A stretch of 54,319 nucleotides of DNA from Phocaeicola massiliensis (GTDB taxonomy: Bacteria > Spirochaetota > Spirochaetia > Sphaerochaetales > Sphaerochaetaceae): contig CAVEGR010000079.1 of NCBI GenBank assembly GCA_963615565.1, positions 1-54,319 on the forward strand, written 5' to 3'. Below the pieces are notes generated by a model. The model saw nothing but the letters and a program-made list of their open reading frames with translations. It did not search any database and was not told the DNA's origin. The position numbers were made by a program, and so were the translations under genes. Below, piece after piece: positions 22,701-41,978 of the stretch. Positions within the stretch are counted from its first letter, which is position 1. Each line of letters begins with the position of its first letter.

Positions 22701-22710
22701 AGTAAATAAA

Positions 22711-24686: not shown

Positions 24687-24697
24687 GGAGGACTGAC

Positions 24698-25702
24698 ATG
24701 GCTTTATTTGAAAGTTACGAAAGAAGAGTAGATCATATAAACGAAGTCATTGCACAGTACGGAATCAGCAGCATTGAAGAGTGCCGCAAGATTTGCAACG
24801 ACTATGGATTTGACCCATATGACATTGTTAAAGGTGTTCAGCCAATTGCTTTTGATAATGCAGGTTGGGCTTATACAGTTGGTGCAGCAATTGCAATCAA
24901 AAAAGGCGTAAAAACAGCAGCTGAAGCAGCTGAAGCTATTGGTATTGGTCTTCAGAGTTTCTGTATTGCAGGTTCTGTTGCTGATGACAGAAAAGTTGGA
25001 CTTGGCCATGGAAACCTTGGTGCAATGCTTCTAAGAGATGAAACAAAATGCTTTGCATTCCTTGCAGGACATGAAAGCTTTGCAGCTGCAGAAGGTGCAA
25101 TTGGTATTGTAAAGAACGCAAACAAGGCAAGAAAAGAGCCTCTCAGAGTTATCCTTAACGGACTTGGAAAAGACGCTGCTCAAATCATTAGCAGAATCAA
25201 CGGTTTCACATATGTCCAGACACAGTTTGACTACTATACAGGAAAGCTGAACATTGTCCGTGAAATTGCTTACTCCACTGGAGAGAGAGCTGCTGTACGT
25301 TGCTATGGTGCAGACGATGTCCGCGAAGGTGTTGCAATCATGCATCATGAAGGCGTTGATGTTTCCATCACAGGAAACTCCACAAACCCAACAAGATTCC
25401 AGCATCCAGTTGCAGGAACATACAAGAAAGAATGCATTGAACAGGGCAAGAAATACTTCTCAGTTGCTTCCGGTGGTGGCACAGGAAGAACACTCCATCC
25501 AGATAACATGGCAGCCGGTCCTGCTTCATACGGCATGACAGATACAATGGGAAGAATGCACTCAGATGCTCAATTTGCAGGTTCTTCATCTGTTCCAGCA
25601 CACGTTGAGATGATGGGCTTCCTTGGAATGGGAAACAACCCAATGGTTGGTGCTACAGTAGCTGTTGCAGTTGCAGTAGATCAAGCTCTCAACAAGAGAT
25701 AA
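24698..25702 (+). CDS. GGGtGRT family protein (conserved, function unknown)
   Basis: Contains the name-giving motif SGGGTGRT (..FSVASGGGTGRTLHPD..). AAGGAGG lies upstream. The gene starts 11 nt after the NifU-like gene. Confidence 0.8.
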   Translation: MALFESYERRVDHINEVIAQYGISSIEECRKICNDYGFDPYDIVKGVQPIAFDNAGWAYTVGAAIAIKKGVKTAAEAAEAIGIGLQSFCIAGSVADDRKVGLGHGNLGAMLLRDETKCFAFLAGHESFAAAEGAIGIVKNANKARKEPLRVILNGLGKDAAQIISRINGFTYVQTQFDYYTGKLNIVREIAYSTGERAAVRCYGADDVREGVAIMHHEGVDVSITGNSTNPTRFQHPVAGTYKKECIEQGKKYFSVASGGGTGRTLHPDNMAAGPASYGMTDTMGRMHSDAQFAGSSSVPAHVEMMGFLGMGNNPMVGATVAVAVAVDQALNKR

Positions 25703-25719
25703 TTTACACTTGACAAGTA

Positions 25720-25749
25720 AGGGCCTCCAGCAAATGGGGGCTCTTTTTA
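25720..25749 (+). terminator. Rho-independent terminator after the GGGtGRT gene
   Basis: 9-bp stem AGGGCCTCC / GGGGGCTCT (2 G-U pairs) with a 7-nt loop, followed by TTTTAT. Confidence 0.65.
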
Positions 25750-25761
25750 TAAGGAAACATC

Positions 25762-26052
25762 ATGCTCCACCACATAATTGTTAAATTTAATGACAATCTC
25801 ACCCCGTCTCAGAAAGCTCAAATAATCAAGCAGGCCTCAGAGCTATTCAAGGGCCTAACTGACATTGATGGCATCCACGGCGTTTGCCTGCATCCATCCT
25901 GCATTGACAGGCCAAACCGCTTTGACTTGATGATAGTCATTGACATGGACAAGGACGCCCTTCCCATCTACGACGACTGCACCATCCACCACACTTGGAA
26001 GACCGATTTCTCTAAATACATCAAGAGCAAGACTATTTTTGATTACGAGTAA
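25762..26052 (+). CDS. Dabb (stress-responsive alpha/beta barrel) family protein
   Basis: 96 aa; the N-terminus MLHHIIVKFND is typical of Dabb domains. AAGGAAA lies upstream. Confidence 0.65.
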   Translation: MLHHIIVKFNDNLTPSQKAQIIKQASELFKGLTDIDGIHGVCLHPSCIDRPNRFDLMIVIDMDKDALPIYDDCTIHHTWKTDFSKYIKSKTIFDYE

Positions 26053-26067: not shown

Positions 26068-27492
26068 CTAAGGCTGAAAAACCTTAACATTTTGTGATTT
26101 TTGAATCAGTTTGTGGCCTTCAGACAAAGAAGAAACAACACCACAAGATAAGGCTTGTGTCAGAATGTTACCAAGGGATGTAGCTTCAGAAGGGCCCGCA
26201 TAAACACAAAGACCTGTTTCTTGAGCTGTCCATTCATCTAGAATCTCATTTTTACATCCACCACCTATGATGTATATAGAATCAAATGTTCTTCCAACAA
26301 TGCTCTCAAGATCCTTAACAGCTTTTGCATATGTAATTGCAAGACCTCTGTAAATAGCACGCATAAACTGTCCTTGCGTTTGAGGAACCTCTTGATTTGT
26401 TTCTTTACAGTAGTTCACAATTCTATCTGTCATAAGATTGTCATGAGTATTGGGAGCCATAAATCTTTCATCTAATGGATTTATGTAACTATTAAATGTC
26501 TTATCCTCAAGCGTTTGAAGATCCAATTCCTTCCATGAAACATTTTGGCCCAATGATTTCCAATAGTTTACACATTCTGTTTGAATCCACATTCCAACAA
26601 TATTTTGTAAGAATAATGTTTCACCATTTAAGCCTTTCTCATTTGAGAAACCCTCATCTAGCGCTTGTGCTGTCAATATAGGATCTTTTGAACCAACACC
26701 CAAAATTGACCATGTTCCTGATGAAAGAAACAATGGATACTCTTCATCTACTGCAGGAACTGCAACAACTGCACTTGCAGTATCATGGGCTGCTGATGCA
26801 ACAACTACAACATCTGCAGAGGCTCCAAGTTGTTTCTGTAAATCTTCTGTTAAAGGTCCAACAATAGCCCCAGATGGCACTATCTTACCAAAAAATTCTA
26901 CATTAAAGCCTAATTGGGCTATTAAATCCCAGTTCCAATCATTAGTATGTGGATTAAGTAATTGTGTTGTTGAAGCATGAGTTAGCTCATTACACATAAC
27001 ACCTGTGAGCCAATAATTGAGAAGATCTGGAAAACTTAGATAGTGAGAGGCTGCATCAAAATCTTTTGGTCTATTGCACTTATGAGCATACAATTGAAAA
27101 ATTGTGTTATAAGACTGAATAGAAAGTCCTGACTGTTTATATAAGCTCTCTCTTCCTCCAGCAATTTCAATTACTTTATCCATAACTGGTAGAGTTCTTG
27201 AATCTCTGTAGTGATAGATTGGACTTACTAAAGCTCCACTTTCATCAAGTAAGCCATAATCTACGCCCCAAGTATCTATTCCTATACTTACAATATCATC
27301 TCCATATTTATCAAAACACTTTTTTAGACCTTTTAAGATCTCCATATAGATACCATGAGCATCCCAATAGAATTCCCCAAGAACAGCACAATTTGGAGTT
27401 TGAAATCTATGAACTTCTTCAAATGATTTCAGATTTCCAACTATGACTCTTCCACTTGTTGCGCCCAAATCAACTGCAATGTGTTTTTTCAT
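26068..27492 (-). CDS. rhaB: FGGY carbohydrate kinase, rhamnulokinase (RhaB) family; substrate here possibly L-fuculose or another 6-deoxy-ketose
   Basis: The N-terminus IAVDLGATSGRVIVG..VHRF resembles E. coli RhaB (VAVDLGASSGRV..IHRF). 474 aa; TAGGAG lies upstream. Confidence 0.8.
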   Translation of the reverse strand: MKKHIAVDLGATSGRVIVGNLKSFEEVHRFQTPNCAVLGEFYWDAHGIYMEILKGLKKCFDKYGDDIVSIGIDTWGVDYGLLDESGALVSPIYHYRDSRTLPVMDKVIEIAGGRESLYKQSGLSIQSYNTIFQLYAHKCNRPKDFDAASHYLSFPDLLNYWLTGVMCNELTHASTTQLLNPHTNDWNWDLIAQLGFNVEFFGKIVPSGAIVGPLTEDLQKQLGASADVVVVASAAHDTASAVVAVPAVDEEYPLFLSSGTWSILGVGSKDPILTAQALDEGFSNEKGLNGETLFLQNIVGMWIQTECVNYWKSLGQNVSWKELDLQTLEDKTFNSYINPLDERFMAPNTHDNLMTDRIVNYCKETNQEVPQTQGQFMRAIYRGLAITYAKAVKDLESIVGRTFDSIYIIGGGCKNEILDEWTAQETGLCVYAGPSEATSLGNILTQALSCGVVSSLSEGHKLIQKSQNVKVFQP

Positions 27493-27521
27493 GTAAAACT
27501 CCTACACATAAACCTACAAGC

Positions 27522-28784
27522 TTATACGTTCTCTAGAAGATACTTCTCAGCTTCTGCACACCATAAGCCTTTGTGAGCCTTAACAATTCTATCAAGTTCT
27601 GCAAACAAAGGATTTTCTTTTGCTTTTGACTCAAAGTCTGCAATAGCAGTTAAAGGCATTCTAATATGTGTATAAATCAGCTTTTTACCGCCAGGAATTG
27701 AGGGAAGATTCACTATTGTAGATGAGACAGCGTCTAGTCCACCTATATGTGTAATCATTGAAGATGGAGTTAACTGTCCTTTTGACATCATATCAAGAGC
27801 TTCAATCATATCACTTGTAGTCCCACCACTAGTTCCAACAAGATGATGAGAAGCATAGTGAACGTTATAGAAATTCAGCATTGCAGAGAAATCGGTCTTA
27901 TTGGGGCCGGCGAAGAAATTCAGACAACCATCATGAGATAGGATTGCATCGGCCTGCTCCACAAGAGATTTTACAGGAGCCATAACCAAGACATCGTCGT
28001 AGCCTTGGCCATCTTTTGTCAGATTACGCAACGTACTGACTGGGTCCGCAACATCTTTTGTGTTCAGATAAACCAATTTCACCCCGTTGCGTGCAGCTTC
28101 CTGCTCCGAGAAAAGTTCTTTTGCACGGGCAAGTCTTGCATCATCAATATCTGTTACAACCAAAAGACCCGGCTTTCTTGGATTGTGAATAGCATAATCT
28201 ATAGCACCAAGGCCCATTGGCCCTACACCAGCAATAATTGCAAGATTTCCGCCCTCAACAATGCCCATTTCATGGTCATAGCAGCCTTCTTTTGTGTGAT
28301 ACATTGCATGAAAAGTACCAATAATACAGCTTACAGGCTCCGCAAGAGACCCCTTATAGAAGGCCTCACCGTTGTACTTCAAAAGCCCGCCACCTTCCAT
28401 AATGTGAGGTGGAATTATTGCATAAGTGCTGAAGCCTCCACAGTATGGAAAACTATAGCCAGGATTACGCATCATGCCTTTGTAATTGATAGCAGGCTGA
28501 ATAGAGCATAACTGCCCCACCTTATAATCATTGGCCCACTTTTTTCCTACTTGCACAATCTTACCACAGAATTCATGACCAACAATTATTGGATTTTGAG
28601 CAATATCGTCAGGAACTCTTTTGTGTGCAGCCCCTTGCTCTGCAGCTTTGTGGTCGCTCATACACACAGAATTTGTTACTATTTCAAGAAGTATTTCATC
28701 TTCTGCTATTTCTGGAAACTCAAAGGTCTCCATTCTAAGATCATTTACACCATAAAGTCTGATTGCTGTAGTTTTTAATGCCAT
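27522..28784 (-). CDS. Zn-dependent medium-chain dehydrogenase, L-sorbose-1-phosphate reductase (SorE)-like
   Basis: Zn-ligand motifs CMSDHK and GHEFCGKIV, and Rossmann motif AGVGPMGLGA. ATG 28784 (MALKTT..) is preceded by AGGAGG; the track start 28805 is less likely. Confidence 0.8.
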   Translation of the reverse strand: MALKTTAIRLYGVNDLRMETFEFPEIAEDEILLEIVTNSVCMSDHKAAEQGAAHKRVPDDIAQNPIIVGHEFCGKIVQVGKKWANDYKVGQLCSIQPAINYKGMMRNPGYSFPYCGGFSTYAIIPPHIMEGGGLLKYNGEAFYKGSLAEPVSCIIGTFHAMYHTKEGCYDHEMGIVEGGNLAIIAGVGPMGLGAIDYAIHNPRKPGLLVVTDIDDARLARAKELFSEQEAARNGVKLVYLNTKDVADPVSTLRNLTKDGQGYDDVLVMAPVKSLVEQADAILSHDGCLNFFAGPNKTDFSAMLNFYNVHYASHHLVGTSGGTTSDMIEALDMMSKGQLTPSSMITHIGGLDAVSSTIVNLPSIPGGKKLIYTHIRMPLTAIADFESKAKENPLFAELDRIVKAHKGLWCAEAEKYLLENV

Positions 28785-28857
28785 AAAATCCTCCTGTGTT
28801 GTCAAAGTTAGTTATGCAGTAGCTAATTAAGTAGTAGATAGTCAAGCAATACCATTT

Positions 28858-29991
28858 CTAATTAAGCATTACTTGTCCGCCAGTAACTGGTACTGCCTGG
28901 CCGGTTTCGTATTCTTGTTCCACAATGTAGAACAGTGCTCTCATCACATCAATTGATGTGCAACCTCTTCCCATTGGTACTTTGGATTCATAGTATTTCC
29001 TTACATCTGCAACTGTTTTTGCTCCTGGAACCTTTCCAGTATTCAAATATTGAACAAATAATCCTCTAACGGGGTCACTCCAAAGTGGTCCATCCAAGAA
29101 ATTTCCTGGGCATATTGCATTAACCTTTATTCCGTCTTTTACAAGTTCTAATGCAAAACTCTGAGCCAATCCAATTACTCCAAATTTAGCTCCTGCATAA
29201 GCTCCATTCTTATTAGAACCCTCAAGTCCACTCTTAGAAGAAATTACTATTATATCTGTCAAAAGATCTTTTGCCGCCTCATGTTGAACTGCCATTTGTC
29301 TGCTGGCATGCTTTGTGCAAATAAAGAAGCCTTTGTAATCAATGTTTGTAACAAGTTCAAAATCTTTTAACGGCATTTCTTTTACACTTCCAGCTCTTAA
29401 GACACCTGCATTACTTACAAAAATATCTAAAGAACCCGTTTGCTGTTCTACAAAATCCATCATATTTATTACAGCTTCTTCGTCGCAAACATTAACTGCA
29501 ACTCCAAGAGCAACTGTTGCTTTAGCCTCTTCATTTAATTCATTAGCAAGACGCGTTGCACCTTCAATGTTCATATCTGCAATGAAAACAAAAGCACCTT
29601 TTTGAACAAGACTTCTAACAATTCCCTCGCCAAAACCTTGCGCACCACCTGTAACAAGAGCAACTTTTCCACTAACAACGTTATCTCGGTCTGCTTTGCA
29701 ATCTTCACGTTTTACATCTCTAGAAGGCTTTATAGAAACCCCTTCTCCTTTACAAGCTTCATCATATGTTAAACCAAGTCCAAAAACTGAATCTGAACCT
29801 TCTACAGCTATTGTTGCAGGATAGTTACCTTTAGAAACAAAGTCCTCAAACGTCTTGTTCCACTCATTTTTTTCACCATTAAGTAGCAATGAGGGCATTG
29901 TTTTCTCTAATTGAGCCTCAAGGGTCTTAACAAAAAGACACCTATTTCCATCAAAAGTTAAACCTCTAATATATGCTGCTAAATGCTCCAT
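28858..29991 (-). CDS. Short-chain dehydrogenase/reductase (sorbitol-6-phosphate dehydrogenase-like) with a ~105-aa N-terminal extension
   Basis: TGGAQGFG at residues 114-121 and the catalytic YAGAK motif. GGAGG lies upstream of the ATG. Confidence 0.85.
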   Translation of the reverse strand: MEHLAAYIRGLTFDGNRCLFVKTLEAQLEKTMPSLLLNGEKNEWNKTFEDFVSKGNYPATIAVEGSDSVFGLGLTYDEACKGEGVSIKPSRDVKREDCKADRDNVVSGKVALVTGGAQGFGEGIVRSLVQKGAFVFIADMNIEGATRLANELNEEAKATVALGVAVNVCDEEAVINMMDFVEQQTGSLDIFVSNAGVLRAGSVKEMPLKDFELVTNIDYKGFFICTKHASRQMAVQHEAAKDLLTDIIVISSKSGLEGSNKNGAYAGAKFGVIGLAQSFALELVKDGIKVNAICPGNFLDGPLWSDPVRGLFVQYLNTGKVPGAKTVADVRKYYESKVPMGRGCTSIDVMRALFYIVEQEYETGQAVPVTGGQVMLN

Positions 29992-30001
29992 AAAACCTCC
30001 A

Positions 30002-31339
30002 TTAACACTTTTTAACTAAAATTTCTTCACATAAAGTTCTTGCACTTTCTAGAACATGAAAATTATCAAGCTCTCTTCCAAGTTCTGCATACATCTTTAT
30101 CCTTCTTTCCAAATCCAAATCTCTCATTGGATTTGAGCTAGCAAACAAACCAAAATCTGGCTTAATAGTTGATAGTTTTTCATGTGCAACTAATGCCCAA
30201 GCAGAATCTACAAGATGAGAACATGTATCCTTAAGTAGTTCAGGACAATTAAAACTTTGCCTACTAGAATTAACATCAACGCCACTTATTTGCATGAGAT
30301 TGTTTTCCTTGCAAAGCCTAACAATCTTTTTTATTTGAGCATCAGAATTTCTTGGTGGCATGAATGTCACAGCCTTAAACCCAATATTTGCAAGATATGG
30401 TATAAACTCATCCAAGTAAGAGTCTTCAAATTTTTGAGCTTTCTTATCTCCAGTTTTAGAATCTTCTACATCACCAAGATATGCATAAGCAGAAATTGCA
30501 CCAATAGAATTAGAAAATGAAAGAACTTCATTGATATCTGGACATTCTTTTTCATTTGGCTGAATGAAAAAGAGAGAAACAAAATTGCTTTTGAGAACAC
30601 CAAGAAGATCATACGAATAATGAGGATTATTTACATCCAAAAGATATGCTTTTTGCTTCTCCTGTAGCACAATACCCAATGAATCCAAGTAATATACTAT
30701 CTTTTCTCCTTTTTCATACTTATCAATTAACTTAAGTGCTACAGCATAAAGTATATGGCGTTCAGTAACAGAGCCACCTTCTTTATAACGTGATAAAGGA
30801 AGAACATCTTTGTCATAGTCTATGCTAAGATCTAGTCCTAGAGAATTGAACTTATTAACCATTTCTCTATTACGTAATCCTCTTGCTTCACAAATTGGAC
30901 GTAAGAAGTTCTTACAATCATCAATCTTTCCATTAGGGATGCCATGTACACACATGTAGCCAATGCCAAGGGAATCGGGATTATTAAGCCTCTTGGATGC
31001 AAATGGGGTGTGCATAAAGCTGGCTCTGAGTTCAAAGCCAACTGTTGAAGCCAAGCCAAAAAATTGCGTGCATTCCAAAAGCTCACGTGCAGCGCCTATG
31101 CTATCATGATCTATAGAGCCAACTATCCCCAAGCCCGCTTCCCATGCCTTGAAAGCAGCTAAAGCAGGCTCATATGGAGAAAAAGAATAAGTTGTATGAA
31201 CATGATTGTTCACTTCTTCTAGAACAGTTCTTGTAAGACGTCCATCTTGGATTTCCTTACCCAAGACTCTTGCAGCCTGAATACGTTTTTCATAGCTTTT
31301 ATCGTTTAAATCACGCTGTAGAGTCTTGTAAGAATCCAT
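30002..31339 (-). CDS. PHP-domain metal-dependent phosphoesterase family protein
   Basis: The HVHTTYSFSPY motif (H-x-H) is typical of PHP domains. ATG 31339 lies 2 nt after the E1 stop, with AAGGGAG inside the E1 3' end. The track start 31345 is a TTG. Confidence 0.7.
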   Translation of the reverse strand: MDSYKTLQRDLNDKSYEKRIQAARVLGKEIQDGRLTRTVLEEVNNHVHTTYSFSPYEPALAAFKAWEAGLGIVGSIDHDSIGAARELLECTQFFGLASTVGFELRASFMHTPFASKRLNNPDSLGIGYMCVHGIPNGKIDDCKNFLRPICEARGLRNREMVNKFNSLGLDLSIDYDKDVLPLSRYKEGGSVTERHILYAVALKLIDKYEKGEKIVYYLDSLGIVLQEKQKAYLLDVNNPHYSYDLLGVLKSNFVSLFFIQPNEKECPDINEVLSFSNSIGAISAYAYLGDVEDSKTGDKKAQKFEDSYLDEFIPYLANIGFKAVTFMPPRNSDAQIKKIVRLCKENNLMQISGVDVNSSRQSFNCPELLKDTCSHLVDSAWALVAHEKLSTIKPDFGLFASSNPMRDLDLERRIKMYAELGRELDNFHVLESARTLCEEILVKKC

Positions 31340-31341
31340 TG

Positions 31342-33798
31342 TCAAACTCCCTTCTTTTGAGTTCTGAAGAACTCTATGTCATTTCTATTTGATTTTAGCA
31401 CATATCCTTCCAGTGGAATAATTTGCTCGTGTATAGAATCAAGAATATCCACAGTATGAGCAAAATAGTATTCTTCCATTTCAGCAGGAGGAGTAATCCA
31501 GTTTCTAGAGCCAACAACAACACATGGAGCATCAAGTTTGCCAAAACAGAGTCTGTCAAGATTTGATGCAACAGTGTGCATATAGCTACCTCTTTCTGCA
31601 CTGTCTGTAACAAGAACGCAACGGCCTGTCTTGTTAACAGACTCTACAAGTTTTTCATATCTAAGAGGATTAATCCATCTAAGGTCTATAACCTCTGCCT
31701 TCATTCCATACTTTGTAAGCTCTTGTGCAGCAGATAGTGCTGTGTAAAGAGCTGGACCTAAAGCAATAATAGTAATGTCATCACCAGCAAGCTTTACATC
31801 TGGTTCACCTTCAGGGATTTCATAGTAGCCTTCTGGAACTCCTTCTTTGTGGAACTCTTCACCTTTTCCATACAGTTTCTGACTTTCAAAGAATACAAAT
31901 GGATCTGTTCCTCTAAGAGCAACATTCAGAATACCCTTTACATCATAAGGAGTTGCTGGATAAGCAGCTTTGAGACCAGGAACACATGAAACCATTGAAG
32001 TCCATTCCTGAGAATGCTGAGCACCATATTTATTACCAACAGATACTCTTAGAACAAGAGGCATCTTTAGAACACCAGCACTCATTGCCTGCCACTTTGG
32101 CATTTGATTAAAGACCTCATCTCCTGCACAGCCTAGGAAGTCACAATACATAAGCTCAACAACTGCACGTCCGCCAGATATTGCATAACCTACACCACTA
32201 CCAACAATTGCAGCTTCACTTATTGGAGCATTGAAGAATCTATGATAAGGAAGAAGCTCTGTAAGTCCTCTGTAGCATGCAAATGCACCACCCCAGTCTC
32301 TATGGTCTTCACCATATGCAATCATTGAAGGGTCATTTACAAATCTATGGAGCATTGCTTCAAAGACAGCATCTCTATATTGGTACTGCTTGGCAGCTGG
32401 ATACGGCTTTCCACTTTCATCAAATGCATAACGCTTTCTTCCTGCAATTTGCTTAACACGTGGATTTTCCTCAACTGGCTGAAGCAGTTCACTCTTTCCT
32501 TCTTGCATTGCAGGCGTATTTGTATTGCTGAACATAACATTTTCAATGAAAGAAGGCTCAATAATTGGAGAAATCTCATCATCTACAACAATAGAAATAG
32601 TTGTATGCATCTTATCTTTGATAATTTCATCCATCTTCTTGAGGTCTTCATCCACAACAAGGCCATTCTCTACAAGATATTGCCCATATGCTTTAATGGG
32701 ATCCTGCTCTTTAAACGCTTCAAGCTCTTCTTTTGTCCTATAAGTCATTGCATCTGATGGGCTATGTCCACTAAACCGATATGTAATAGTATCCAGCATT
32801 ACAGGTCCTTCGCCCTTAAGCAAAAGTTCCTTTTTGCGCTCAATAGCATCTGCAACAGCCAAAGGATTAAAACCGTCCACACGTTCAACATGCATTCCTT
32901 CTGGGTTTACACCAAGAGCCACTCTTGCTGGCATCCCGTATCCCATAGTTTCACCAATAGGCTGACCACCCATTGCATAGAAGTTGTCAAACACGTTAAG
33001 CATATATGGAGGATTGCCAGGATTTTCTTTCCATAAAGTTCTATATTGATCCATGGCACTCATAACTAGACCTTCCCAAACCGGACCTCTAGCCATAGCA
33101 CCATCACCGATATTTCCAATTACAATTCCCTTTTTATGGTTAATTTTCTTAAACAATGCAGATCCAAATGCAATAGTTCCACTTCCACCAACAATAGCAT
33201 TGTTAGGCATAGAACCAAACGGAGCAAAGAAAGTATGCATTGAACCACCAAGACCTCTAGAGAAGCCAGTACGTTTTGCATAAATTTCAGCTAAAGCACC
33301 ATAGAGAACAAAATTCTCTGCAGTATCCTTAACATTCTTGCCCTTAAAGTACTTCTCAACAACAGCATAGGTCTCGCCATTATTGAATTCTTTAATTATT
33401 TGCTCAATTTCTTTGTCTTCCATCTTTTCAATAGCAGACAAACATTTTGCAATAATTTCACCATGGCTTCTGTGAGAACCAAAAATAAAATCTTCTGGTT
33501 CCAAATTCATAGCTTGTCCAACACAAGCACTTTCTTGACCTGCAGAAAGATGGGCAGGGCCTTTATGATTGAACTTAACTCCCTGATAAACACCTTCTTT
33601 CTTTATGCTGTCCAGCATTGTCTCAAATTCTCTTATGACAAGCATGTCATAATAAACTCTTATAAGACGTTCTTTTCCATACTTCTTAAGTTCTTTCTTA
33701 AAATCACTCTTGTATTGGTTTACAGAAATGTCTTTACCTTTGACTACCTCTGCTTTTCTGAGTTCTGCAGGTTTAAAATCTTCAACATATTTAGACAT
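31342..33798 (-). CDS. Thiamine-diphosphate-dependent dehydrogenase E1 component with fused alpha and beta subunits (acetoin/pyruvate dehydrogenase type)
   Basis: 818 aa. The N-terminal half carries a TPP-binding block (GNIGDGAMARGPVWEGL..NVFDN). The C-terminal half is a transketolase-like pyrimidine-binding and C-terminal domain (..ISEAAIVGSGVGYA..). Confidence 0.85.
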   Translation of the reverse strand: MSKYVEDFKPAELRKAEVVKGKDISVNQYKSDFKKELKKYGKERLIRVYYDMLVIREFETMLDSIKKEGVYQGVKFNHKGPAHLSAGQESACVGQAMNLEPEDFIFGSHRSHGEIIAKCLSAIEKMEDKEIEQIIKEFNNGETYAVVEKYFKGKNVKDTAENFVLYGALAEIYAKRTGFSRGLGGSMHTFFAPFGSMPNNAIVGGSGTIAFGSALFKKINHKKGIVIGNIGDGAMARGPVWEGLVMSAMDQYRTLWKENPGNPPYMLNVFDNFYAMGGQPIGETMGYGMPARVALGVNPEGMHVERVDGFNPLAVADAIERKKELLLKGEGPVMLDTITYRFSGHSPSDAMTYRTKEELEAFKEQDPIKAYGQYLVENGLVVDEDLKKMDEIIKDKMHTTISIVVDDEISPIIEPSFIENVMFSNTNTPAMQEGKSELLQPVEENPRVKQIAGRKRYAFDESGKPYPAAKQYQYRDAVFEAMLHRFVNDPSMIAYGEDHRDWGGAFACYRGLTELLPYHRFFNAPISEAAIVGSGVGYAISGGRAVVELMYCDFLGCAGDEVFNQMPKWQAMSAGVLKMPLVLRVSVGNKYGAQHSQEWTSMVSCVPGLKAAYPATPYDVKGILNVALRGTDPFVFFESQKLYGKGEEFHKEGVPEGYYEIPEGEPDVKLAGDDITIIALGPALYTALSAAQELTKYGMKAEVIDLRWINPLRYEKLVESVNKTGRCVLVTDSAERGSYMHTVASNLDRLCFGKLDAPCVVVGSRNWITPPAEMEEYYFAHTVDILDSIHEQIIPLEGYVLKSNRNDIEFFRTQKKGV

Positions 33799-33804
33799 AT
33801 CTCG

Positions 33805-35163
33805 TTACCCCCTAACAATTTCACTACATGCATCTTTAATAAGTTCAGAAACACTAGGATGTGGGAACACAACCTCAGCAACATCTTGAACTCTTAGTTC
33901 TGCTTCTATTAATGCACTGGCACCCCAAATCATTTCACTTGAATATGGTCCAAGCAAATGAACACCTAAGACTGCTCCTGTTTCAGAATCTGCAACAACC
34001 TTCACAAGACCTGTTGCTCGTTTTCCGTTCTCTGCCAAGAACCTTCCATTTGCTCTCATTTGAACAGTTGCTGTCTTAACTTGCTTTCCCAATGCTTTTG
34101 CAGCACTTTCAGTTAAGCCGCAACCTGATGCTTCTGGACTTCCATAAACAGCCCAAGGAATGGCATTGTAACGCATAACCTGAGTGCGTTTGCCAAAGAT
34201 ATTATCAACAGCAACATCTGCCATTCTAGAAGCACTATGAGCAAGCTGACTTCTTGCGTTTATATCTCCAATAGCATAAATGTTTGAAACATTTGTCTGC
34301 ATTGTTTCATTAACAACAACAGCACCTCTTTCTATGTGTAAACCAAGAGGTTCAAGACCAGCGATATTTGCTCTTCTTCCAACGCTCATTAGCACTAAAT
34401 CACATTCAACTTTTTCTTCTTCACCTTTTGCATTTAGGAAAACAACACCGTTTTCAAGAACCCTAGTCACCTTGCATCCAAGATGGAAATCAACATCCTT
34501 CATTTCCCTTCTTAAGAGTTTTGCAAACTCGCCGTCCATCATTGGAAGAATTTCAGGCATCATTTCAATTACATCTACTTTTGTTCCTAGCAAGGAAAAG
34601 AATGAGGCAAACTCAACACCTATAACTCCACCACCTATAACAGCAAGCCTTTTAGGAATTTCTTTCAGCTCAAGAATTTCGTCACTGGTCACAACATTTG
34701 GTCCTTTTGACCCTTCAATTGGAGGAATAAAAGGAGAACTTCCAGTTGCAAGAATTATGTAATCAGTTTCATAAGTATCATCATTTACTTTTATATGATG
34801 ATTATCTTCAAAGACAGCCTCACCAAAAACAACTTCAACCTTGTTAGACTTCATTAAAAATGCAATTCCACTTCTAAGAGTCTCAATTGTTTCCATCTTC
34901 CACTTCATGGCCTCTGAAAGGTTGAAATTAACATCCTGACAATGAACACCAAACTTGTTGGCTTCCTTTGCATGAAGATATTGTTTTGCACTATTTAATA
35001 AGCTCTTGGTTGGAATGCATCCTCTATTTGTACACACTCCACCCAAATTTTCTCTTTCCACAAGAAGGACTTTCTTTCCAAGTTCGCCTGCGCGTTGAGC
35101 TGCAACATACCCGCCAGGGCCAGCTCCAACAACTATAAGATCATACTTTTGCATAACTTCCAC
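33805..35163 (-). CDS. lpdA: Dihydrolipoyl dehydrogenase (E3)
   Basis: FAD motif VVGAGPGGY and the redox disulfide CTNRGCIPTK. Confidence 0.92.
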   Translation of the reverse strand: MEVMQKYDLIVVGAGPGGYVAAQRAGELGKKVLLVERENLGGVCTNRGCIPTKSLLNSAKQYLHAKEANKFGVHCQDVNFNLSEAMKWKMETIETLRSGIAFLMKSNKVEVVFGEAVFEDNHHIKVNDDTYETDYIILATGSSPFIPPIEGSKGPNVVTSDEILELKEIPKRLAVIGGGVIGVEFASFFSLLGTKVDVIEMMPEILPMMDGEFAKLLRREMKDVDFHLGCKVTRVLENGVVFLNAKGEEEKVECDLVLMSVGRRANIAGLEPLGLHIERGAVVVNETMQTNVSNIYAIGDINARSQLAHSASRMADVAVDNIFGKRTQVMRYNAIPWAVYGSPEASGCGLTESAAKALGKQVKTATVQMRANGRFLAENGKRATGLVKVVADSETGAVLGVHLLGPYSSEMIWGASALIEAELRVQDVAEVVFPHPSVSELIKDACSEIVRG

Positions 35164-35164
35164 C

Positions 35165-36538
35165 TTATACCGATGCCATTAGCACATCTATATTTGCTAT
35201 GTTGTCACACAAAGCTTTTAAGAACCTTGCTCCTGGAGCTCCATCAATAGCTTGATGATCAATAGTAAGAGAAAGACCAATACTCTCTCTTGCAATTACT
35301 TCTCCATTCTCTTCAACATTCTTTAAAACAATTGCACCAACGCCAAGAATTGCAACTTCTGGAATATTTAAAACGGGAGTAAACGTTTCAATGCCAAAAG
35401 ATCCAACGTTTGAAACCGTAAATGTTGACCCTGTCAAATCATCTGGTTGAGCCTTTCCTTCATGGCAAAGGGAACCTAGTCTTTTAGACTCATTGCTAAT
35501 TTCTTTCAATGTAAGAAGATTTGCATTTTTAATTACAGGAACCATGAGCCCTTTCTTTGTATCTGTAGCCATTCCAAGATTAACATTAGAGAAAACTCTA
35601 ATTTTATCTCCTAGCCAATGAGCGTTCATATTTGGAAAACTAGTAATAGTTCTTGAAACAGCAAACATAACTAAGTCATTTATTGTTATTCCACCAACCT
35701 GCAAAGATTCATCTGCAGACTTAAAGACCTTTCGTAGAGCCTTTAATTTTCTGGCATCGGCATAAGTCATAAGAGTAAGCTGTGCAGTGCTGTTAAGAGA
35801 TTGCTGCATGCGTGATGCCGTGACCTTTCTAATGCCCTTAACCGGAATATCTTCAAACTCACAGGAAGAAGTCTCCTCATTGTTGCAAGAACTTGGTGCA
35901 GGCGCCTTGTAAAGATCGCTTGCCAGAACTCTGCCTCCAATGCCATGGCCAGATGTAGGGATGTTCAATCCATTTTTGCCAATTTCTTGTGATGCAAGTA
36001 TTTCCTTTGCAAGTGGAGTTAATGGCTGCATGCTCTTCATTGCTTCTTTTACGTCTCTTTCAACAACATTTCCCTTTGGCCCAGAAGCAGATATTGAAGA
36101 GATGTCTAATCCAAATTCTTTGGCTAGATTTCTTGCTCTTGGAGAGGAACCCACAGCTTCTTGAGTTCTTAAAGTAGGAGTAATATGGGCCTCTGATTCT
36201 TTCTTTGGCTCATCTTTTGGCTGCTCATTTGTACCTTGTGAGGCTGGATTCTCTGTAGTTGGATTCTCTGTGGCTGGTGCCAAAGCACTTATATCTTCAC
36301 CAACTTGCCCAATAATAGCTATAGGCAACATAACAGGAACCTCATCACCTTCTTCATATAATAGTTTAAGTATGGTTCCTTCTGCGCTAGACTCAACTTC
36401 TATAGTTGATTTGTCAGTCTCTGCCTCACAGATTATATCGCCAACAGAAATAGGCTCGCCTTCTTTCTTTTTCCATTCAACAATAATACAAGATTCAACG
36501 CTGTTACCTTGCTTTGGCATTACAACATGACTGGCCAT
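35165..36538 (-). CDS. Dihydrolipoamide acyltransferase (E2)
   Basis: Lipoyl site CEAETDKSTIEV and catalytic motif DHQAIDGAPGARF. ATG 36538 (MASHVVMPK..) is preceded by AAGGGAG; the track start 36622 is less likely. Confidence 0.9.
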   Translation of the reverse strand: MASHVVMPKQGNSVESCIIVEWKKKEGEPISVGDIICEAETDKSTIEVESSAEGTILKLLYEEGDEVPVMLPIAIIGQVGEDISALAPATENPTTENPASQGTNEQPKDEPKKESEAHITPTLRTQEAVGSSPRARNLAKEFGLDISSISASGPKGNVVERDVKEAMKSMQPLTPLAKEILASQEIGKNGLNIPTSGHGIGGRVLASDLYKAPAPSSCNNEETSSCEFEDIPVKGIRKVTASRMQQSLNSTAQLTLMTYADARKLKALRKVFKSADESLQVGGITINDLVMFAVSRTITSFPNMNAHWLGDKIRVFSNVNLGMATDTKKGLMVPVIKNANLLTLKEISNESKRLGSLCHEGKAQPDDLTGSTFTVSNVGSFGIETFTPVLNIPEVAILGVGAIVLKNVEENGEVIARESIGLSLTIDHQAIDGAPGARFLKALCDNIANIDVLMASV

Positions 36539-36612
36539 AAACACTCCCTTGGAGAAATTTACAAGACCACAATAAAATTTGTCTTGCAAAACCTCCTTAA
36601 AACAATAAAGCT

Positions 36613-36636
36613 GGGCTGTCAAAAATAAGACAGCCC
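36613..36636 (-). terminator. Stem-loop between fucI and the E2 gene (partial terminator or processing site)
   Basis: 8-bp stem GGGCTGTC (36613-36620) / GACAGCCC (36629-36636). On the - strand it is followed by AGCTTTATTGTTTT. Confidence 0.45.
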
Positions 36637-36644
36637 TAAAATTT

Positions 36645-36658
36645 AGTAACTAGTTACT
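36645..36658. promoter_or_regulatory. Perfect 14-bp palindrome AGTAACTAGTTACT immediately after the fucI stop
   Basis: Read directly. Its half-sites GTAAC/GTTAC resemble the operator-like sites at 38518, 38556 and 39142. Confidence 0.35.
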
Positions 36659-36660
36659 TA

Positions 36661-38490
36661 TCAATACTTTGCATAAAGAGGACCTAGAGCCTGACAAGCT
36701 CTGTAGTCCTGTCCTTCTTTGTCTTCACCAAAGGCATTCCAGTAACTTGGCCTGAAGATATCTTCTTCTGGTACGTTATGCATGCACACAGGAATTCTAA
36801 GCATGGAGCATAGAGTAATAATGTCAGCTCCCACATGCCCATAAGCAATAGCTCCGTGATTGGCTCCCCAGTTATTCATAACAGAATAAACATCCTTAAA
36901 AGCACCTTTTCCTGTAAGTCTTGGGGCAAAATAGGTGCTTGGCCAAGTTGGGTCTGTTCTTGCAGCAATCTTTTCATGTACTTCTAAAGGAAGATCACAG
37001 GTCCAGCCTTCTGCAATTTGCATTACAGGGCCAAGTCCTTTAATTATATTCAACCTAGTCATTGTGCAAGGCATTCCACCTCTAGAAAGGAAGCATGAAC
37101 TAAATCCACCCCCACGGAAATAAGGTCCGTTTGCAACTTCCCATTTGACATTCTTCATTGATTCAATGACATCTTCTTCTGTTATATTCCAGAATTCTTT
37201 TCCACAAGGATTGCCTTCACTATCAACCATGCGTCCTTCAGCATCAAGTGTTGTTGCACCACTATTTCTCAAATCAAGGAATCCATTCTTTGCAAGACCT
37301 TCAGGCTTCCAGCCAGTAACACGTTCACATGCTTCTGGGGACCAATAAGTTCTTACATCACTGAACATTGCTGGTTTATTGGTTATAAGCTTGCAGAAGA
37401 GCATTGCTGTGCCATTGCAGAAATCATTCTCTGTTGCCAAGACAAATGATTCTCTAATGCCATTCCAATCCCAAGAAGTATTAAGCATTGTTTCCATAAA
37501 GTCGCCGTTGCACCAGTGGTCTGTCCACTGTCTCTGACCCTGGAAACCTGCATAAAGTGCATTATGACCGTTGCCTTCTTCTGGATATCCCATCTCCTTA
37601 AGTTTTGGGTTTCCAATCATGAGGTCTCTACCAATCATGGCCATCTTGACGCAGAATTCCCAATCCTTCTTTCTCTGCTCTTCACTTCTTGCCCAGCTAC
37701 CGGTATTAACTTTATCTGGAGCCTCAATGCAGTATTCGTGAACCCAATCCATTGCCTTTTTAAATTCTTCTGGATCGTAGATTCCCTCTTCAATTCTTCT
37801 CTCAATTTCGCACATATCTATGGCTTCTGTGCCCATTCCAAGGTATGCTTGCAAGAAATCTTGGTCTACAATAGAACCGGCAATACCCATTGCGCAGCCA
37901 CCCATGGAAAGATAATTCTTTCCTCTCATTGTAACGGCAGCCAAAGCAACTCTAGCAAAACGCAGAATCTTGTCTTTTACATCTTCAGGAATTACATAAT
38001 CATCCTTATCCTGAACATCACGTCCATAAATTCCAAATGCAGGAAGACCTTTCTGTGAATATGCTGCAAGAGCACAAGCAAGATAGACAGCACCTGGTCT
38101 TTCAGTTCCATTTAACCCCCAGACTGCCTTGATAGTATGAGGATCATGGTCTATTGTTTCAGTTCCGTAGCACCAGCAAGGAGTAACAGAAAGGGTTATT
38201 GCAACACCTTCTTTCTTGAACTTCTCAGCACAAGCTGCAGCTTCTGCAACTCCACCAATAGTGGTATCAGCAATGACACACTCTAGAGGTACGCCATTAG
38301 AATGTCTAACATTCTCAGAAATGAGCTTTGCAGCATTCTGCGCCATTTTCATGGTTTGCTCTTCAAGTGACTCTCTAACCCCTTTTTGTCTTCCGTCAAT
38401 TACTGGGCGAATTCCAAGCTTTGGTAAATCTCCTTTATACCTAAACTCTGAACCAACATTTCTAATTGTAGATTCTTTTTTGTTTGCCAT
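36661..38490 (-). CDS. fucI: L-fucose isomerase
   Basis: 609 aa; the N-terminus [26 protein letters not shown] is characteristic of FucI. Confidence 0.95.
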
Positions 38491-38517
38491 AACTATTCTC
38501 CCATGGTAAGATTTTTA

Positions 38518-38531
38518 TGTAAACGTTTACA
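38518..38531. promoter_or_regulatory. Candidate LacI-family operator O1 (perfect palindrome TGTAAACGTTTACA)
   Basis: Fits the LacI/GalR operator shape TGnAAnCGnTTnCA. It lies in the 112-bp divergent fucI/fucU intergenic region. Confidence 0.55.
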
Positions 38532-38555
38532 TTGTTCCATGTATGAGTATCTCAC

Positions 38556-38569
38556 AGTAAACGGTTACA
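38556..38569. promoter_or_regulatory. Candidate LacI-family operator O2 (AGTAAACGGTTACA)
   Basis: Two mismatches from O1. It lies 34 nt upstream of the fucU ATG. Confidence 0.45.
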
Positions 38570-38602
38570 CGCAAGCTTTTTTTATTTTTAAGGAGGATAA
38601 AA

Positions 38603-39034
38603 ATGTTAAAAGGAATTCCATCAATATTAGCACCGGAGCTTTTAAAGATCCTAATGGAAATGGGACACGGTGATGAAATTGTTATTGGAGATGGTAACTT
38701 CCCAGCTGCAAACTATGCTAGGAATCTTATCAGATTAGATGGCCACGGTGCAAAAGAGGTTTTAGAGGCAGTTTTAAAGCTAATGCCTCTAGATACATAT
38801 GCACCAAACGTTATTCTTATGCAGAAAATGAACTGTGATAAGGACTTAGAAATTCCAATTTGGAAAGATTTTAAAGAAATTGCACAAAATGGTGACAGTG
38901 GCTTTAAAGGTTTAGAATATATTGACAGATTTGATTTCTATGAACGAGCAAAGAAAGCTTATGCTGTCATTGCAACAGGAGAAACAAGCATTTACGCTAA
39001 TGTAATTCTCAAAAAAGGAGTTGTTTCACAATAA
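38603..39034 (+). CDS. fucU: L-fucose mutarotase (RbsD/FucU family)
   Basis: 143 aa with the motif MGHGDEIVIGDGNFPA. AAGGAGG lies upstream. Confidence 0.85.
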   Translation: MLKGIPSILAPELLKILMEMGHGDEIVIGDGNFPAANYARNLIRLDGHGAKEVLEAVLKLMPLDTYAPNVILMQKMNCDKDLEIPIWKDFKEIAQNGDSGFKGLEYIDRFDFYERAKKAYAVIATGETSIYANVILKKGVVSQ

Positions 39035-39141: not shown

Positions 39142-39155
39142 TGTAAACGTTTACT
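39142..39155. promoter_or_regulatory. Candidate LacI-family operator O3 (TGTAAACGTTTACT)
   Basis: One mismatch from O1. It abuts the putative -35 of the ABC transporter promoter. Confidence 0.5.
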
Positions 39156-39193: not shown

Positions 39194-39252
39194 TCATATA
39201 TGGGCTGTTCGCCCATGTTTCATACCAAATGAAAAAAAAGGAGAACAAGTGT

Positions 39253-40332
39253 ATGAAGAAAGCGACGATGATTCTTTTGTTTGCTTTAATTGCCGTAAGT
39301 TTGGTTTTTGCCCAAGGTGCACAAGAAAGCCAAAAAGTGGAAAAGATCAAAGTGGGTGCTCTTATTAGGAATCTCAACGAAACTTTTGTAAGAGACTACA
39401 CAGACAACCTCAAGGTTCTTGCTGAAAAAGCAGGAGTTGACTTAAACGTACAGGATGCCAACAGTGACGTTGATAAACAGCTCACACAGCTTCAGACCCT
39501 CATCTCTCAGGGTTACAAGTATTTTGTAATCATTCCACAAGATACTTCTGCAACAGAACAGATGTGTGAATTGATTAATGCCGTTGGTGGTGCTGCTGCA
39601 TTCTCAAATATTCAGCCATCTGTTGCTGCTCTCAAAGTTGGAAAGAACTTCTTCTTAGCTTCTTCTCCAGAACAGGTTGCAGGTCAATATCAGGCAGAGA
39701 TTGCTATTGAATACTTCACAAAGTATCCAGAAAAAGCTCCAAACAAGACTATTAACGTCCTGTATCTCAACGGACAGCTTGGACACCCGGCACAGGTAAA
39801 CAGAAGAGCTGGTTTTGTAAATACACTCGAGTCAAAGGGTTGGACAGTAAACTTTGTTGCTGAAGACACAGCAAACTGGGGTGCTGAACAGGCACAGCAG
39901 AAAATGGATGCTTGGGTTACAGCATTTGATGGCAAGTACAATCTTGTTGTAGCACAGAATGATGACATGGCACTTGGTGCAATTGAATCTCTCATCCAGA
40001 ACGGAAAAGTAAAATCAGACACTTCTGATGGCACAAGATTGTTGGTCCCAGTCCTTGGTGTTGACGCAACAGCAACTGGTTGTGCTTCAATTGACAGAAA
40101 GGAAATGTATGCAACAGTCTTACAGGATGCTATTGGCCAGAGCACAACAGCATTTGAGATTGTTCTTAACATTGCAAAGGGAAATTCTCCTGACGGCTTT
40201 GTCGCTGGTGGAATTGCTCCAGCAACTGCAACAATTGATGAAGAGCCAGCAAATGATCCAGCTATCATTTCTCAGTGCTATTTGGTTCCATTCAAACCAG
40301 TTACAATGGAAAACTATAAGGATTATCTATAA
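39253..40332 (+). CDS. Sugar ABC transporter substrate-binding protein (CUT2, ribose/galactose-binding fold)
   Basis: ATG 39253 (MKKATMILLFALIAVSLVFAQGAQES) is preceded by AAGGAG; the track start 39229 is less likely. Confidence 0.85.
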   Translation: MKKATMILLFALIAVSLVFAQGAQESQKVEKIKVGALIRNLNETFVRDYTDNLKVLAEKAGVDLNVQDANSDVDKQLTQLQTLISQGYKYFVIIPQDTSATEQMCELINAVGGAAAFSNIQPSVAALKVGKNFFLASSPEQVAGQYQAEIAIEYFTKYPEKAPNKTINVLYLNGQLGHPAQVNRRAGFVNTLESKGWTVNFVAEDTANWGAEQAQQKMDAWVTAFDGKYNLVVAQNDDMALGAIESLIQNGKVKSDTSDGTRLLVPVLGVDATATGCASIDRKEMYATVLQDAIGQSTTAFEIVLNIAKGNSPDGFVAGGIAPATATIDEEPANDPAIISQCYLVPFKPVTMENYKDYL

Positions 40333-40359
40333 GCCTTATCTAGGTAATTTAGTTACTAT

Positions 40360-40396
40360 GCGAGTTGGTCTTGTACCAGCTCGCATTATAGTTTTT
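40360..40396 (+). terminator. Stem-loop with a T-rich tail after the binding-protein gene (attenuator)
   Basis: 10-bp stem GCGAGTTGGT / ACCAGCTCGC (40360-40384), followed by ATTATAGTTTTTC. Confidence 0.5.
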
Positions 40397-40460
40397 CTTT
40401 ATTTTGCAAAGAGTTTGAAACTTGCAAGGTCATTGCAAAATAGGGAAAAAGGAGAAAGCA

Positions 40461-41966: not shown

Positions 41967-41978
41967 AAAGGAGAGAAC

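Follow-up and report, generated by a model that had tools for sequence, protein, structure and literature searches.

A 6-deoxyhexose locus in Sphaerochaetaceae that probably encodes an undescribed split into acetyl-CoA and a four-carbon sugar phosphate

Fucose and rhamnose rank among the major sugars in mucins, in the cell walls of plants and in polysaccharides of algae. Under anaerobic conditions they are known to be broken down via lactaldehyde and 1,2-propanediol, often in microcompartments, a process that influences cross-feeding and the formation of propionate in gut and sediment habitats. The stretch of DNA analysed here (the window) is a single contig of 54,319 nt, CAVEGR010000079.1, which is filed under Phocaeicola massiliensis and assigned by GTDB to the Sphaerochaetaceae; absences reported for the window cover these 54 kb. 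It carries eight co-directional genes, headed by the L-fucose isomerase gene fucI, by whose products 6-deoxy sugars are probably split, in an undescribed way, to acetyl-CoA and a sugar phosphate of four carbons. Two described elements of sugar metabolism come close to this proposal, namely the reduction of L-sorbose-1-phosphate to D-sorbitol-6-phosphate by SorE (PMC12817954) and 1-deoxyfructose-6-phosphate, which is a real bacterial metabolite (PMC13450708). In the literature searched we found no description of such a pathway, of fucitol- or rhamnitol-1-phosphate, or of a link between these gene families, and a comparative study of rhamnose utilisation takes in neither Spirochaetes nor these genes (PMC3870299).

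The eight genes lie on the minus strand and are separated, in the order given below and with starts supported by ribosome-binding sites, by 122, 1, 6, 2, 10, 73 and 29 nt:

36661-38490, minus strand: fucI, L-fucose isomerase, 609 aa (three Pfam Fucose_iso domains; NCBIfam)
35165-36538, minus strand: E2, dihydrolipoyl acyltransferase, 457 aa (Pfam Biotin_lipoyl, E3_binding and 2-oxoacid_dh)
33805-35163, minus strand: E3, dihydrolipoyl dehydrogenase, 452 aa (TIGR01350, 502 bits against a cut-off of 409)
31342-33798, minus strand: fused E1 alpha-beta, dependent on thiamine pyrophosphate (TPP), 818 aa (Pfam E1_dh, Transket_pyr and Transketolase_C)
30002-31339, minus strand: PHP-fold metalloprotein, 445 aa (fold match by Foldseek)
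28858-29991, minus strand: short-chain dehydrogenase/reductase (SDR), sorbitol-6-phosphate-dehydrogenase-like, 377 aa, catalytic domain at residues 105-377 (PDB match)
27522-28784, minus strand: SorE/YggP-family Zn-dehydrogenase, putative ketose-1-phosphate reductase, 420 aa (full-length homology)
26068-27492, minus strand: FGGY kinase of the fuculose/rhamnulose-kinase type, 474 aa (NCBIfam and PDB matches)

A preliminary description of this DNA had listed these genes and junctions together with a divergent unit of fucU, an ABC importer and a LacI regulator and with operator-like palindromes, and every element was found. According to our best model, which we hold tentatively and at slightly less than an even chance, the carbonyl of a 6-deoxyketose-1-phosphate would be transposed from C2 to C5 and the product cleaved by the TPP/lipoyl complex into acetyl-CoA and a tetrose-4-phosphate, a sequence that would replace aldol cleavage.

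The enzymes that would prepare the substrate are recognisable at the family level. FucI scores above both equivalog cut-offs (TIGR01089, 1003 bits against 850; NF008220, 1019 against 775). The kinase stays below its curated cut-offs (TIGR02627, rhamnulokinase, 431 bits against 528; TIGR02628, L-fuculokinase, 159 against 471), and its best PDB matches are the L-fuculose kinase of S. pneumoniae (4c23, 295 bits) and E. coli RhaB (263 bits), which supports a resemblance to fuculose and rhamnulose kinases. The Zn-dehydrogenase aligns over its full length with SorE of K. pneumoniae (46% identity over 413 residues, E 4e-134), the gene used for comparison being the one within a sorC-sorD-PTS-sorE operon (PTS, phosphotransferase system), and it is 53% identical to E. 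coli YggP, with the GHE and GxGxxG motifs intact. Judged by its sequence it belongs to the SorE/YggP family, in agreement with its previous designation as SorE-like, and reduction of a ketose-1-phosphate at C2 is its putative activity.

For the SDR, the best PDB match is sorbitol-6-phosphate dehydrogenase (S6PDH; 5o3z, 152 bits; next match 108), and the motifs TGxxxGxG and S-Y-K as well as Asp139 (NAD-type) are present. The window protein remains below the S6PDH cut-off (NF009050, 229 bits against 307), whereas its short orthologues in two related loci, L113 and L114, exceed it with 401 and 371 bits, so that the earlier S6PDH-like assignment holds. Against the model of the bifunctional protein RhaEW it reaches 136 bits with a cut-off of 568 (TIGR02632), in a match limited to positions 407-670; it has no aldolase domain and is not a RhaEW member. 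An N-terminal extension of about 105 aa is present in about 60 orthologues, its sequence barely conserved. The idea that this extension is the remnant of an aldolase was rejected, as it is poorly conserved and a comparison with the aldolase-like half of the fusion proteins described below revealed no similarity.

The components of the E1-E2-E3 complex carry the expected motifs: the lipoyl-lysine motif TDKS and the catalytic motif DHQAIDG in E2, the redox-active CxxxxC motif (CTNRGC) in E3 and the TPP motif GDG...N in E1. E2 falls under every NCBIfam cut-off for E2 of the pyruvate dehydrogenase (PDH) and 2-oxoglutarate dehydrogenase complexes (PDH E2 model, 277 bits against 445). It matches the AcoC-type model NF011457 with 70 bits against 307, in the lipoyl region alone, its catalytic domain being 2-oxoacid_dh instead. 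The fused E1 misses the PDH equivalog cut-offs as well (E1 beta, 209 bits against 321; E1 alpha, 183 against 394) and is 31.6% identical to AcoAB of Caballeronia, a bona fide reference taken from an operon with AcoX and AcoC, 30.1% to PdhAB and 27.3% to BkdAB. As such, the name "acetoin-dehydrogenase-type" that the complex had been given describes an analogy and not a homology, since E2 is not AcoC-like and E1 is about equidistant from Aco, Pdh and Bkd. In a neighbour-joining tree of eight taxa, E1 forms a separate clade with a fused E1 encoded on the Rhizobium plasmid pRL8 (54% identity in the trimmed alignment) and does not group with housekeeping PDH. Along the plasmid hits to E1 (n=745), identity drops straight from 50% to about 32%. 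By its sequence, E1 is a distinct subfamily, set apart from AcoAB, PdhAB and BkdAB.

The pRL8 protein (Rhizobium johnstonii 3841; L001, record 73124-99523) is the sole close relative of E1 among plasmids (about 51% identity by tblastn). Its gene neighbours encode a lipoyl protein, an AcoC-like hydrolase, a psicose-3-epimerase-like protein, a fructokinase-like PfkB kinase, a SorC regulator, a sugar ABC importer and FucU/RbsD, and the cluster is uncharacterised. Since this relative sits in a sugar cluster, the E1 subfamily is tied to sugar clusters in two unrelated phyla. The metagenomic loci L099-L112, which are related to the pRL8 cluster, hold E1 with AcoC-like and SorC genes. Three further loci (L113, 4490-6072; L120, 4459-6022; L129) contain, within the gene string and directly before E2, genes for lipoate-protein ligase (LplA/B) and lipoyl synthase (LipA). 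Because of these genes the complex looks pathway-specific, and it may be the main lipoate user in the respective organisms. A housekeeping PDH as the leading idea was rejected in view of the separate E1 clade, the co-inheritance with sugar genes and the LipA/LplA genes of some loci.

The 445-aa protein has no Pfam match even at E<=10 and none in NCBIfam. Its AlphaFold2 model (predicted local distance difference test, pLDDT, 92.9) retrieves PHP phosphoesterases as top Foldseek matches (3e0f, 3o0f, 2yb1 and 9etk; E 2e-11 to 4e-9; target TM about 0.7), and divergent homologues in L118 and L154 weakly match PF02811 with 31 and 21 bits. The predicted structure is thus that of a PHP-type (beta/alpha)7 barrel like those of COG0613 phosphoesterases (E 1e-11 to 1e-9), an assignment made by fold only. 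In the alignment, as opposed to model coordinates, the metal ligands HxH, H78, E103, H132 and D355 are kept, and two of the three ligands of the third-metal site are lost (Asp replaced by Phe53; DxH changed to D355-x-N357). The binuclear metal site is accordingly predicted to be kept and the third site to be lost.

Taken stepwise, FucU and FucI would convert fucose into L-fuculose, which the FucK/RhaB-like kinase would phosphorylate to L-fuculose-1-phosphate. The SorE-family reductase would reduce C2 of this compound to give a 6-deoxyhexitol-1-phosphate, i.e. a 1-deoxyhexitol-6-phosphate, whose original C5 (the penultimate carbon) would be oxidised by the S6PDH-like SDR, resulting in a 1-deoxy-ketohexose-6-phosphate with a CH3-CO-CHOH- end. 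From this acetoin-like end the fused E1 would cleave off CH3-CO in the reverse of a DXS-type ligation; the acetyl group would be passed via lipoyl-E2 to acetyl-CoA, E3 would form NADH and a tetrose-4-phosphate would be released. The steps from FucU/FucI to the SDR rest on family-level homology; cleavage, inversion and any contribution of c19, an aldolase-family protein of related loci considered below, are inferred, and the E1 substrate purely so.

The stereochemistry of this route can be predicted by combining Fischer projections with the reactions known for SorE and S6PDH. L-Fuculose-1-phosphate would yield L-fucitol-1-phosphate, which equals 1-deoxy-D-galactitol-6-phosphate, then 1-deoxy-D-tagatose-6-phosphate and, on cleavage without inversion, D-threose-4-phosphate. 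The route had been drawn without inversion in the preliminary description; its logic of kinase, SorE-like reductase and SDR moving the carbonyl is supported by homology, whereas its endpoint, in our stereochemical reading D-threose-4-phosphate, is not a central metabolite. For this reason one inversion at the original C3 would still be needed. It would give 6-deoxy-L-sorbose-1-phosphate, the exact deoxy analogue of the substrate of SorE, and lead via 1-deoxy-D-fructose-6-phosphate to D-erythrose-4-phosphate, and it could act on the ketose-1-phosphate or on the tetrose-4-phosphate. As the only unassigned universal component, the PHP-fold protein is a candidate for this inversion, with low confidence. 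The fullest version of the model holds that many anaerobes, chiefly Spirochaetes, catabolise both L-fucose and L-rhamnose by carbonyl transposition and E1-E2-E3 cleavage (to acetyl-CoA, NADH and erythrose- or threose-4-phosphate), with the PHP protein as a non-hydrolytic epimerase/isomerase; its chance we put some way short of even.

Related loci were collected from genomes, one per species (285 relatives of the PHP protein; 80 loci fetched and read with 10 kb on either side, mostly from Sphaerochaeta and other Spirochaetales), and from metagenomes with an E1 profile (at least 570 relatives; 80 loci kept), the open reading frames (ORFs) being simple calls of our own that were then clustered. 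In the genome loci the syntenic string, hereafter the module, reads DeoR-E2-E3-E1-PHP-SDR-SorE-like-kinase. Its components were counted among the 80 loci as follows, losses falling mostly at contig ends: PHP 76, E1 74, SDR 70, SorE-like 65, kinase 58, E2 57 and E3 56. Between the window and the locus of S. pleomorpha (L002), identity amounts to 75% for E1, 72% for the SorE-like protein, 71% for FucI, 69% for E3, 62% for the SDR, 57% for the kinase and 56% each for PHP and E2.

Four contexts can be distinguished among the genome loci: a rhamnose-type ABC importer with RhaM; AraC-RhaA-c19; FucI/FucU; and no deoxyhexose gene in reach, the last (group B) comprising 13 of the 80 loci, without a 6-deoxyhexose gene within 10 kb. 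Linkage of the module to FucI, FucU, RhaA, RhaM or RhaT recurs in several lineages and gene orders. S. pleomorpha, a locus of the Parasphaerochaeta coccoides type (L085) and others hold a supercluster in the order FucI<, FucU>, AraC<, RhaA, c19, ABC, RhaM, DeoR, module. Co-occurrence of the whole gene set with fucI or rhaA, a comparison proposed in the preliminary description, was found in many genomes. Metagenomic loci contain the same families in reshuffled order, the dominant architecture being E2-(E3)-E1-PHP-[fusion of an aldolase-like domain and SDR, about 655 aa]-SorE-like. The module is widespread, conserved and uncharacterised, with component families that are known.

Two variants of the module stand out. 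In L068, L070 (4361-6352) and L082, a transketolase gene follows the SorE-like gene in the usual place of the kinase; this position is compatible with a tetrose-phosphate product and may also be a coincidence. A second variant (L154, L125, L130, L172, L137 and L167) is without E3 and has three genes inserted between E1 and PHP, for a HAD-IIA hydrolase, a 212-aa FucA/MtnB-like class II aldolase-family protein and a HAD-IA hydrolase. Taken together they are reminiscent of methionine salvage with its dehydratase/enolase-phosphatase steps, and they fit no model considered here.

In the scanned window ORFs of at least 80 aa, Pfam detected none of the domains Aldolase_II, Fe-ADH, aldehyde dehydrogenase and BMC, and tblastn found no RhaA or RhaE-like sequence in the window; aldolase, FucO/AldA and microcompartment genes are thus absent across the 54 kb, as had been stated before. 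E. coli FucA and RhaD probes, which were approximate sequences and a less firm guide than the Pfam scans, gave no tblastn match in the window or in L001-L098; the FucA probe did match FucA-like ORFs in some metagenomic variants. Two divergent fucose-only lineages hold all eight families and no aldolase-family gene. One is that of the window, including its close relatives L004 and L005, with the more distant L039 arranged alike; the other is L114 (DeoR<, SorE-like, E2, E3, E1, SDR, PHP, kinase, FucI), the proteins of which are 36-67% identical to those of the window. The broader claim that the module never has an aldolase was rejected. In S. pleomorpha, L085 and others, rhaA is followed by c19, a 360-385-aa class II aldolase-family protein whose best models correspond to the N-terminal (RhaE) half of RhaEW, and in most metagenomic loci such a domain is fused to the SDR. 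The statement "no aldolase" consequently holds for the fucose-only loci (window, L114) and fails as a property of the module, given c19, the fusions and the FucA-like genes.

Across its entire length, c19 can be aligned with the N-terminal half of the fusions (37% identity), and residues 106-377 of the window SDR are 53% identical to the SDR half of 653-aa aldolase-like/SDR fusions. These RhaEW-like fusions score 235-255 bits against the TIGR02632 cut-off of 568. A c19-like match in Shinella belongs to just another aldolase-family/FGGY/HAD cluster. In rhamnose users, our model would have c19, whether as a separate protein or as part of the SDR fusion, adapt L-rhamnulose-1-phosphate (the C4 epimer) or a derivative of it to the same module; c19 could be such an epimerising adaptor because fuculose-1-phosphate and rhamnulose-1-phosphate differ only at C4. 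It could equally be a true aldolase.

Several observations weigh against carbonyl transposition and E1-E2-E3 cleavage. All PHP-fold members known to us are phosphoesterases, and we know of no precedent for an epimerase or isomerase role. In most lineages the module occurs together with class II aldolase-family proteins: c19 always comes directly after rhaA, with overlapping stop and start codons; the aldolase-like domain is fused to the SDR, in a RhaEW-like architecture, in 19 of the 28 SDR-bearing metagenomic loci; and other metagenomic variants hold FucA-like 212-aa genes or tandem aldolase-family forms of about 430 aa. The aldolase absence described above spans the 54-kb contig, and a fucA gene could lie elsewhere in the genome. 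Neither the SDR nor the kinase of the window reaches the curated cut-off of its nearest family, E1 and E2 find their best matches in NCBIfam and the PDB among PDH components, and the two HAD phosphatases added in some variants are unexplained by the model. Lastly, RhaEW has been shown experimentally to turn rhamnulose-1-phosphate into dihydroxyacetone phosphate (DHAP) and L-lactate, acting as aldolase and lactaldehyde dehydrogenase (PMC3870299).

These points can be assembled into a different pathway, which we consider unlikely, though deserving of serious thought. The kinase would form the ketose-1-phosphate; a class II aldolase (in relatives, c19 or the fused domain; otherwise a FucA whose gene lies outside the window) would release DHAP and L-lactaldehyde; the SDR, acting like RhaW, would oxidise the latter to L-lactate; the Zn-dehydrogenase or another enzyme would convert lactate into pyruvate; and E1/E2/E3 would be a PDH complex forming acetyl-CoA. 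c19 and the SDR would then represent a split version of the RhaEW-like fusion that dominates in metagenomic loci, in accordance with the demonstrated activity of RhaEW and with the fact that E1 and E2 have PDH components as their nearest relatives, curated as well as solved. The rhaA-c19 operons never hold a kinase of their own and rely on that of the module, which speaks for the same pathway. An Ldh_2-family (malate/L-lactate dehydrogenase 2) gene, conserved beside fucI in Sphaerochaeta superclusters (L084, 4319-5317; L093-L095, 4379-5380), bears on its lactate step and fits it. It leaves, however, no role for the PHP protein or for a conserved SorE-family reductase that is 46% identical to SorE, and a lactate dehydrogenase of the Zn-dependent medium-chain dehydrogenase/reductase type would be without precedent to our knowledge. 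The short SDRs of L113 and L114 reach the S6PDH equivalog cut-off, and the two divergent, complete fucose loci without an aldolase-family gene would require an unseen FucA. E1 forms a separate clade, its only close relative residing in a Rhizobium sugar cluster without any lactaldehyde logic, and it would be pointless to keep a PDH specific to this pathway, which some loci equip with LipA/LplA of its own, for pyruvate that glycolysis also makes.

That the aldolase-like domain is fused to the SDR points to reactions that follow one another, from which a hybrid scheme can be imagined. Here, the SorE-like reductase and the SDR would produce the 1-deoxy-ketohexose-6-phosphate, the SDR-fused aldolase-family domain would cleave it in an FSA-like manner into glyceraldehyde-3-phosphate and hydroxyacetone, and the E1 complex and PHP would process the C3 fragment or serve another step. 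Aldolases are known to cleave 1-deoxyfructose-6-phosphate into these two products (PMC13450708). The scheme is nonetheless improbable in our estimation: two complete fucose loci lack the aldolase-like protein, and TPP-dependent cleavage of hydroxyacetone would release formaldehyde, for which no linked detoxification gene is present. Moreover, we know of no FucA/AraD-fold enzyme that takes hydroxyacetone as nucleophile.

The surroundings of the module in the window comprise the following control regions and divergent genes:

36539-36660, minus strand: fucI/E2 intergenic region with a terminator-like hairpin and an inverted repeat
38491-38602, no strand assigned: fucI/fucU divergent control region with two LacI-type operator-like palindromes
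39142-39155, plus strand: third operator-like palindrome, upstream of the gene for the ABC substrate-binding protein
38603-39034, plus strand: fucU, RbsD/FucU mutarotase (Pfam RbsD_FucU, 149 bits)
39229-42986, plus strand: CUT2-type ABC importer (Pfam Peripla_BP_4, two ABC_tran, BPD_transp_2), consisting of substrate-binding protein (39229-40332), ATPase (40422-41966) and permease (41979-42986)
43064-44137, plus strand: LacI-family regulator (Pfam LacI and Peripla_BP_1/3)

The palindrome TGTAAACGTTTACA occurs with 0-2 mismatches at 38518-38531 (perfect), 38556-38569 (2 mismatches) and 39142-39155. It has 4 matches in the window against 0.24 expected, three of which fall in the two control regions. 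A GGGAGAA ribosome-binding site precedes the ATG of fucI. Directly 3' of the fucI stop codon lies the terminator-like hairpin (36636-36613; 8-bp stem with 6 GC pairs), and a CAAGAC-N13-GTCTTG inverted repeat is located upstream of the ribosome-binding site of E2; no LacI-type operator was found in the 36539-36660 gap before E2. Because of the hairpin in this 122-nt gap, co-transcription of fucI with the remaining genes is uncertain. The window contains no DeoR regulator, in contrast to most related loci.

A different substrate, i.e. another sugar or deoxy-sugar derivative, with mere co-location or co-regulation with fucose and rhamnose genes, would accommodate the group B loci, the HAD phosphatases and FucA/MtnB-like protein of the L154-type variants, and the other enzyme set of the Rhizobium relative. 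We nevertheless give it little credence. fucI heads the gene string of the window, whose sole regulator and operators are of the fucose type, the linkage to FucI, FucU, RhaA, RhaM or RhaT recurs across lineages and gene orders, and the rhaA-c19 operons depend on the kinase of the module.

Elsewhere in the window, a peptidoglycan-recycling-type cluster (12432-19798) encodes a GH3 hydrolase, the exo-beta-N-acetylmuramidase NamZ, the anhydro-MurNAc kinase AnmK, ABC permeases and a 512-aa protein without domain match. Downstream of the module, a second CUT2-type sugar ABC importer (20027-23778, minus strand; substrate-binding protein, ATPase, permease) is placed likewise in L004 and L005. Three plus-strand genes at 23967-26052 adjoin the kinase gene, a position kept in the same two loci; their products are a weakly NifU-like 239-aa protein, a GGGtGRT-family protein (650 bits) and a Dabb-like 96-aa protein.

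If confirmed for its E1 substrate, transposition followed by TPP/lipoyl cleavage would bring with it a new central reaction, performed by the first 2-oxoacid-dehydrogenase-type complex known to act on a sugar phosphate and thus by a lipoate-dependent counterpart of phosphoketolase. Lipoate-dependent dehydrogenase chemistry would then extend from 2-oxoacids and acetoin to sugar phosphates, and lactaldehyde and propanediol would be by-passed. The predicted fermentation products would shift towards more acetate and ATP with no propanediol, which would change the carbon flow for hundreds of genomes of Spirochaetes and other anaerobes. A large unannotated PHP-fold family and a new subfamily of fused E1 proteins would gain a function, and metabolic engineering a carbon-efficient split of C6 into C2 and C4. 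Should an aldolase and a PDH complex be at work instead, the locus would still be an unusual, self-contained module leading from deoxyhexose to acetyl-CoA.

Among the described systems, the L-sorbose pathway of Klebsiella and E. coli (SorE with a D-glucitol-6-phosphate dehydrogenase of the SorD/SrlD type) resembles the first half of the proposed route, in that a SorE/YggP-family Zn-dehydrogenase is paired with a hexitol-6-phosphate-dehydrogenase-like SDR and the carbonyl of a ketose-1-phosphate is moved from C2 to C5, as homology suggests for the present locus. Differences lie in the origin of the substrate, which is made by an FGGY kinase acting on a 6-deoxyketose here and by the PTS there, and in the product, which here would be a 1-deoxy-ketohexose-6-phosphate unable to enter glycolysis as fructose-6-phosphate does. 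The window SDR is also only 29% identical to Klebsiella SorD and has a 105-aa N-terminal extension. The 1-deoxy-ketohexose-6-phosphate intermediate would be shared with the 1,5-anhydrohexitol-6-phosphate route (PMC13450708). That route, however, employs radical ring opening by the glycyl-radical isomerases YbiW/PflD and an aldolase yielding glyceraldehyde-3-phosphate and hydroxyacetone, whereas a 6-deoxy sugar origin and oxidative cleavage with TPP and lipoate are proposed here.

With the canonical 6-deoxyhexose pathways (FucIKA-FucO/AldA, RhaABD, RhaEW) the window has FucU, FucI and a fuculose/rhamnulose-type kinase in common, and the loci of relatives carry RhaA, RhaM, RhaT and a RhaE-like protein or RhaEW-like fusion. 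Unlike these pathways, the window and L114 are without an aldolase or lactaldehyde enzyme, and the module contains, in addition, a dedicated E1/E2/E3 complex next to a SorE-like reductase and a PHP-fold protein.

As regards this complex, AcoA/AcoB/AcoC/AcoL likewise consist of a TPP-dependent E1 (alpha and beta), a lipoyl E2 and an E3, the chemistry would be alike in that cleavage beside CH3-CO-CHOH gives acetyl-CoA and an aldehyde, and the Rhizobium homologue of E1 is paired with an AcoC-like lipoyl protein and an alpha/beta hydrolase. The window E1, however, is a single fused polypeptide in a clade of its own, 31-33% identical to bona fide AcoAB, the window E2, with its E3-binding domain, is a canonical 2-oxoacid_dh acyltransferase and not AcoC, and there is no AcoX or AcoR. 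PDH complexes of the heterotetrameric-E1 type share the same domain architecture of E1 alpha/beta, E2 and E3 and provide the best curated and solved matches. In comparison with them, the E1 described here is fused, about 30% identical to PdhAB and below every PDH equivalog cut-off, and the complex is embedded in, and co-inherited with, a sugar operon.

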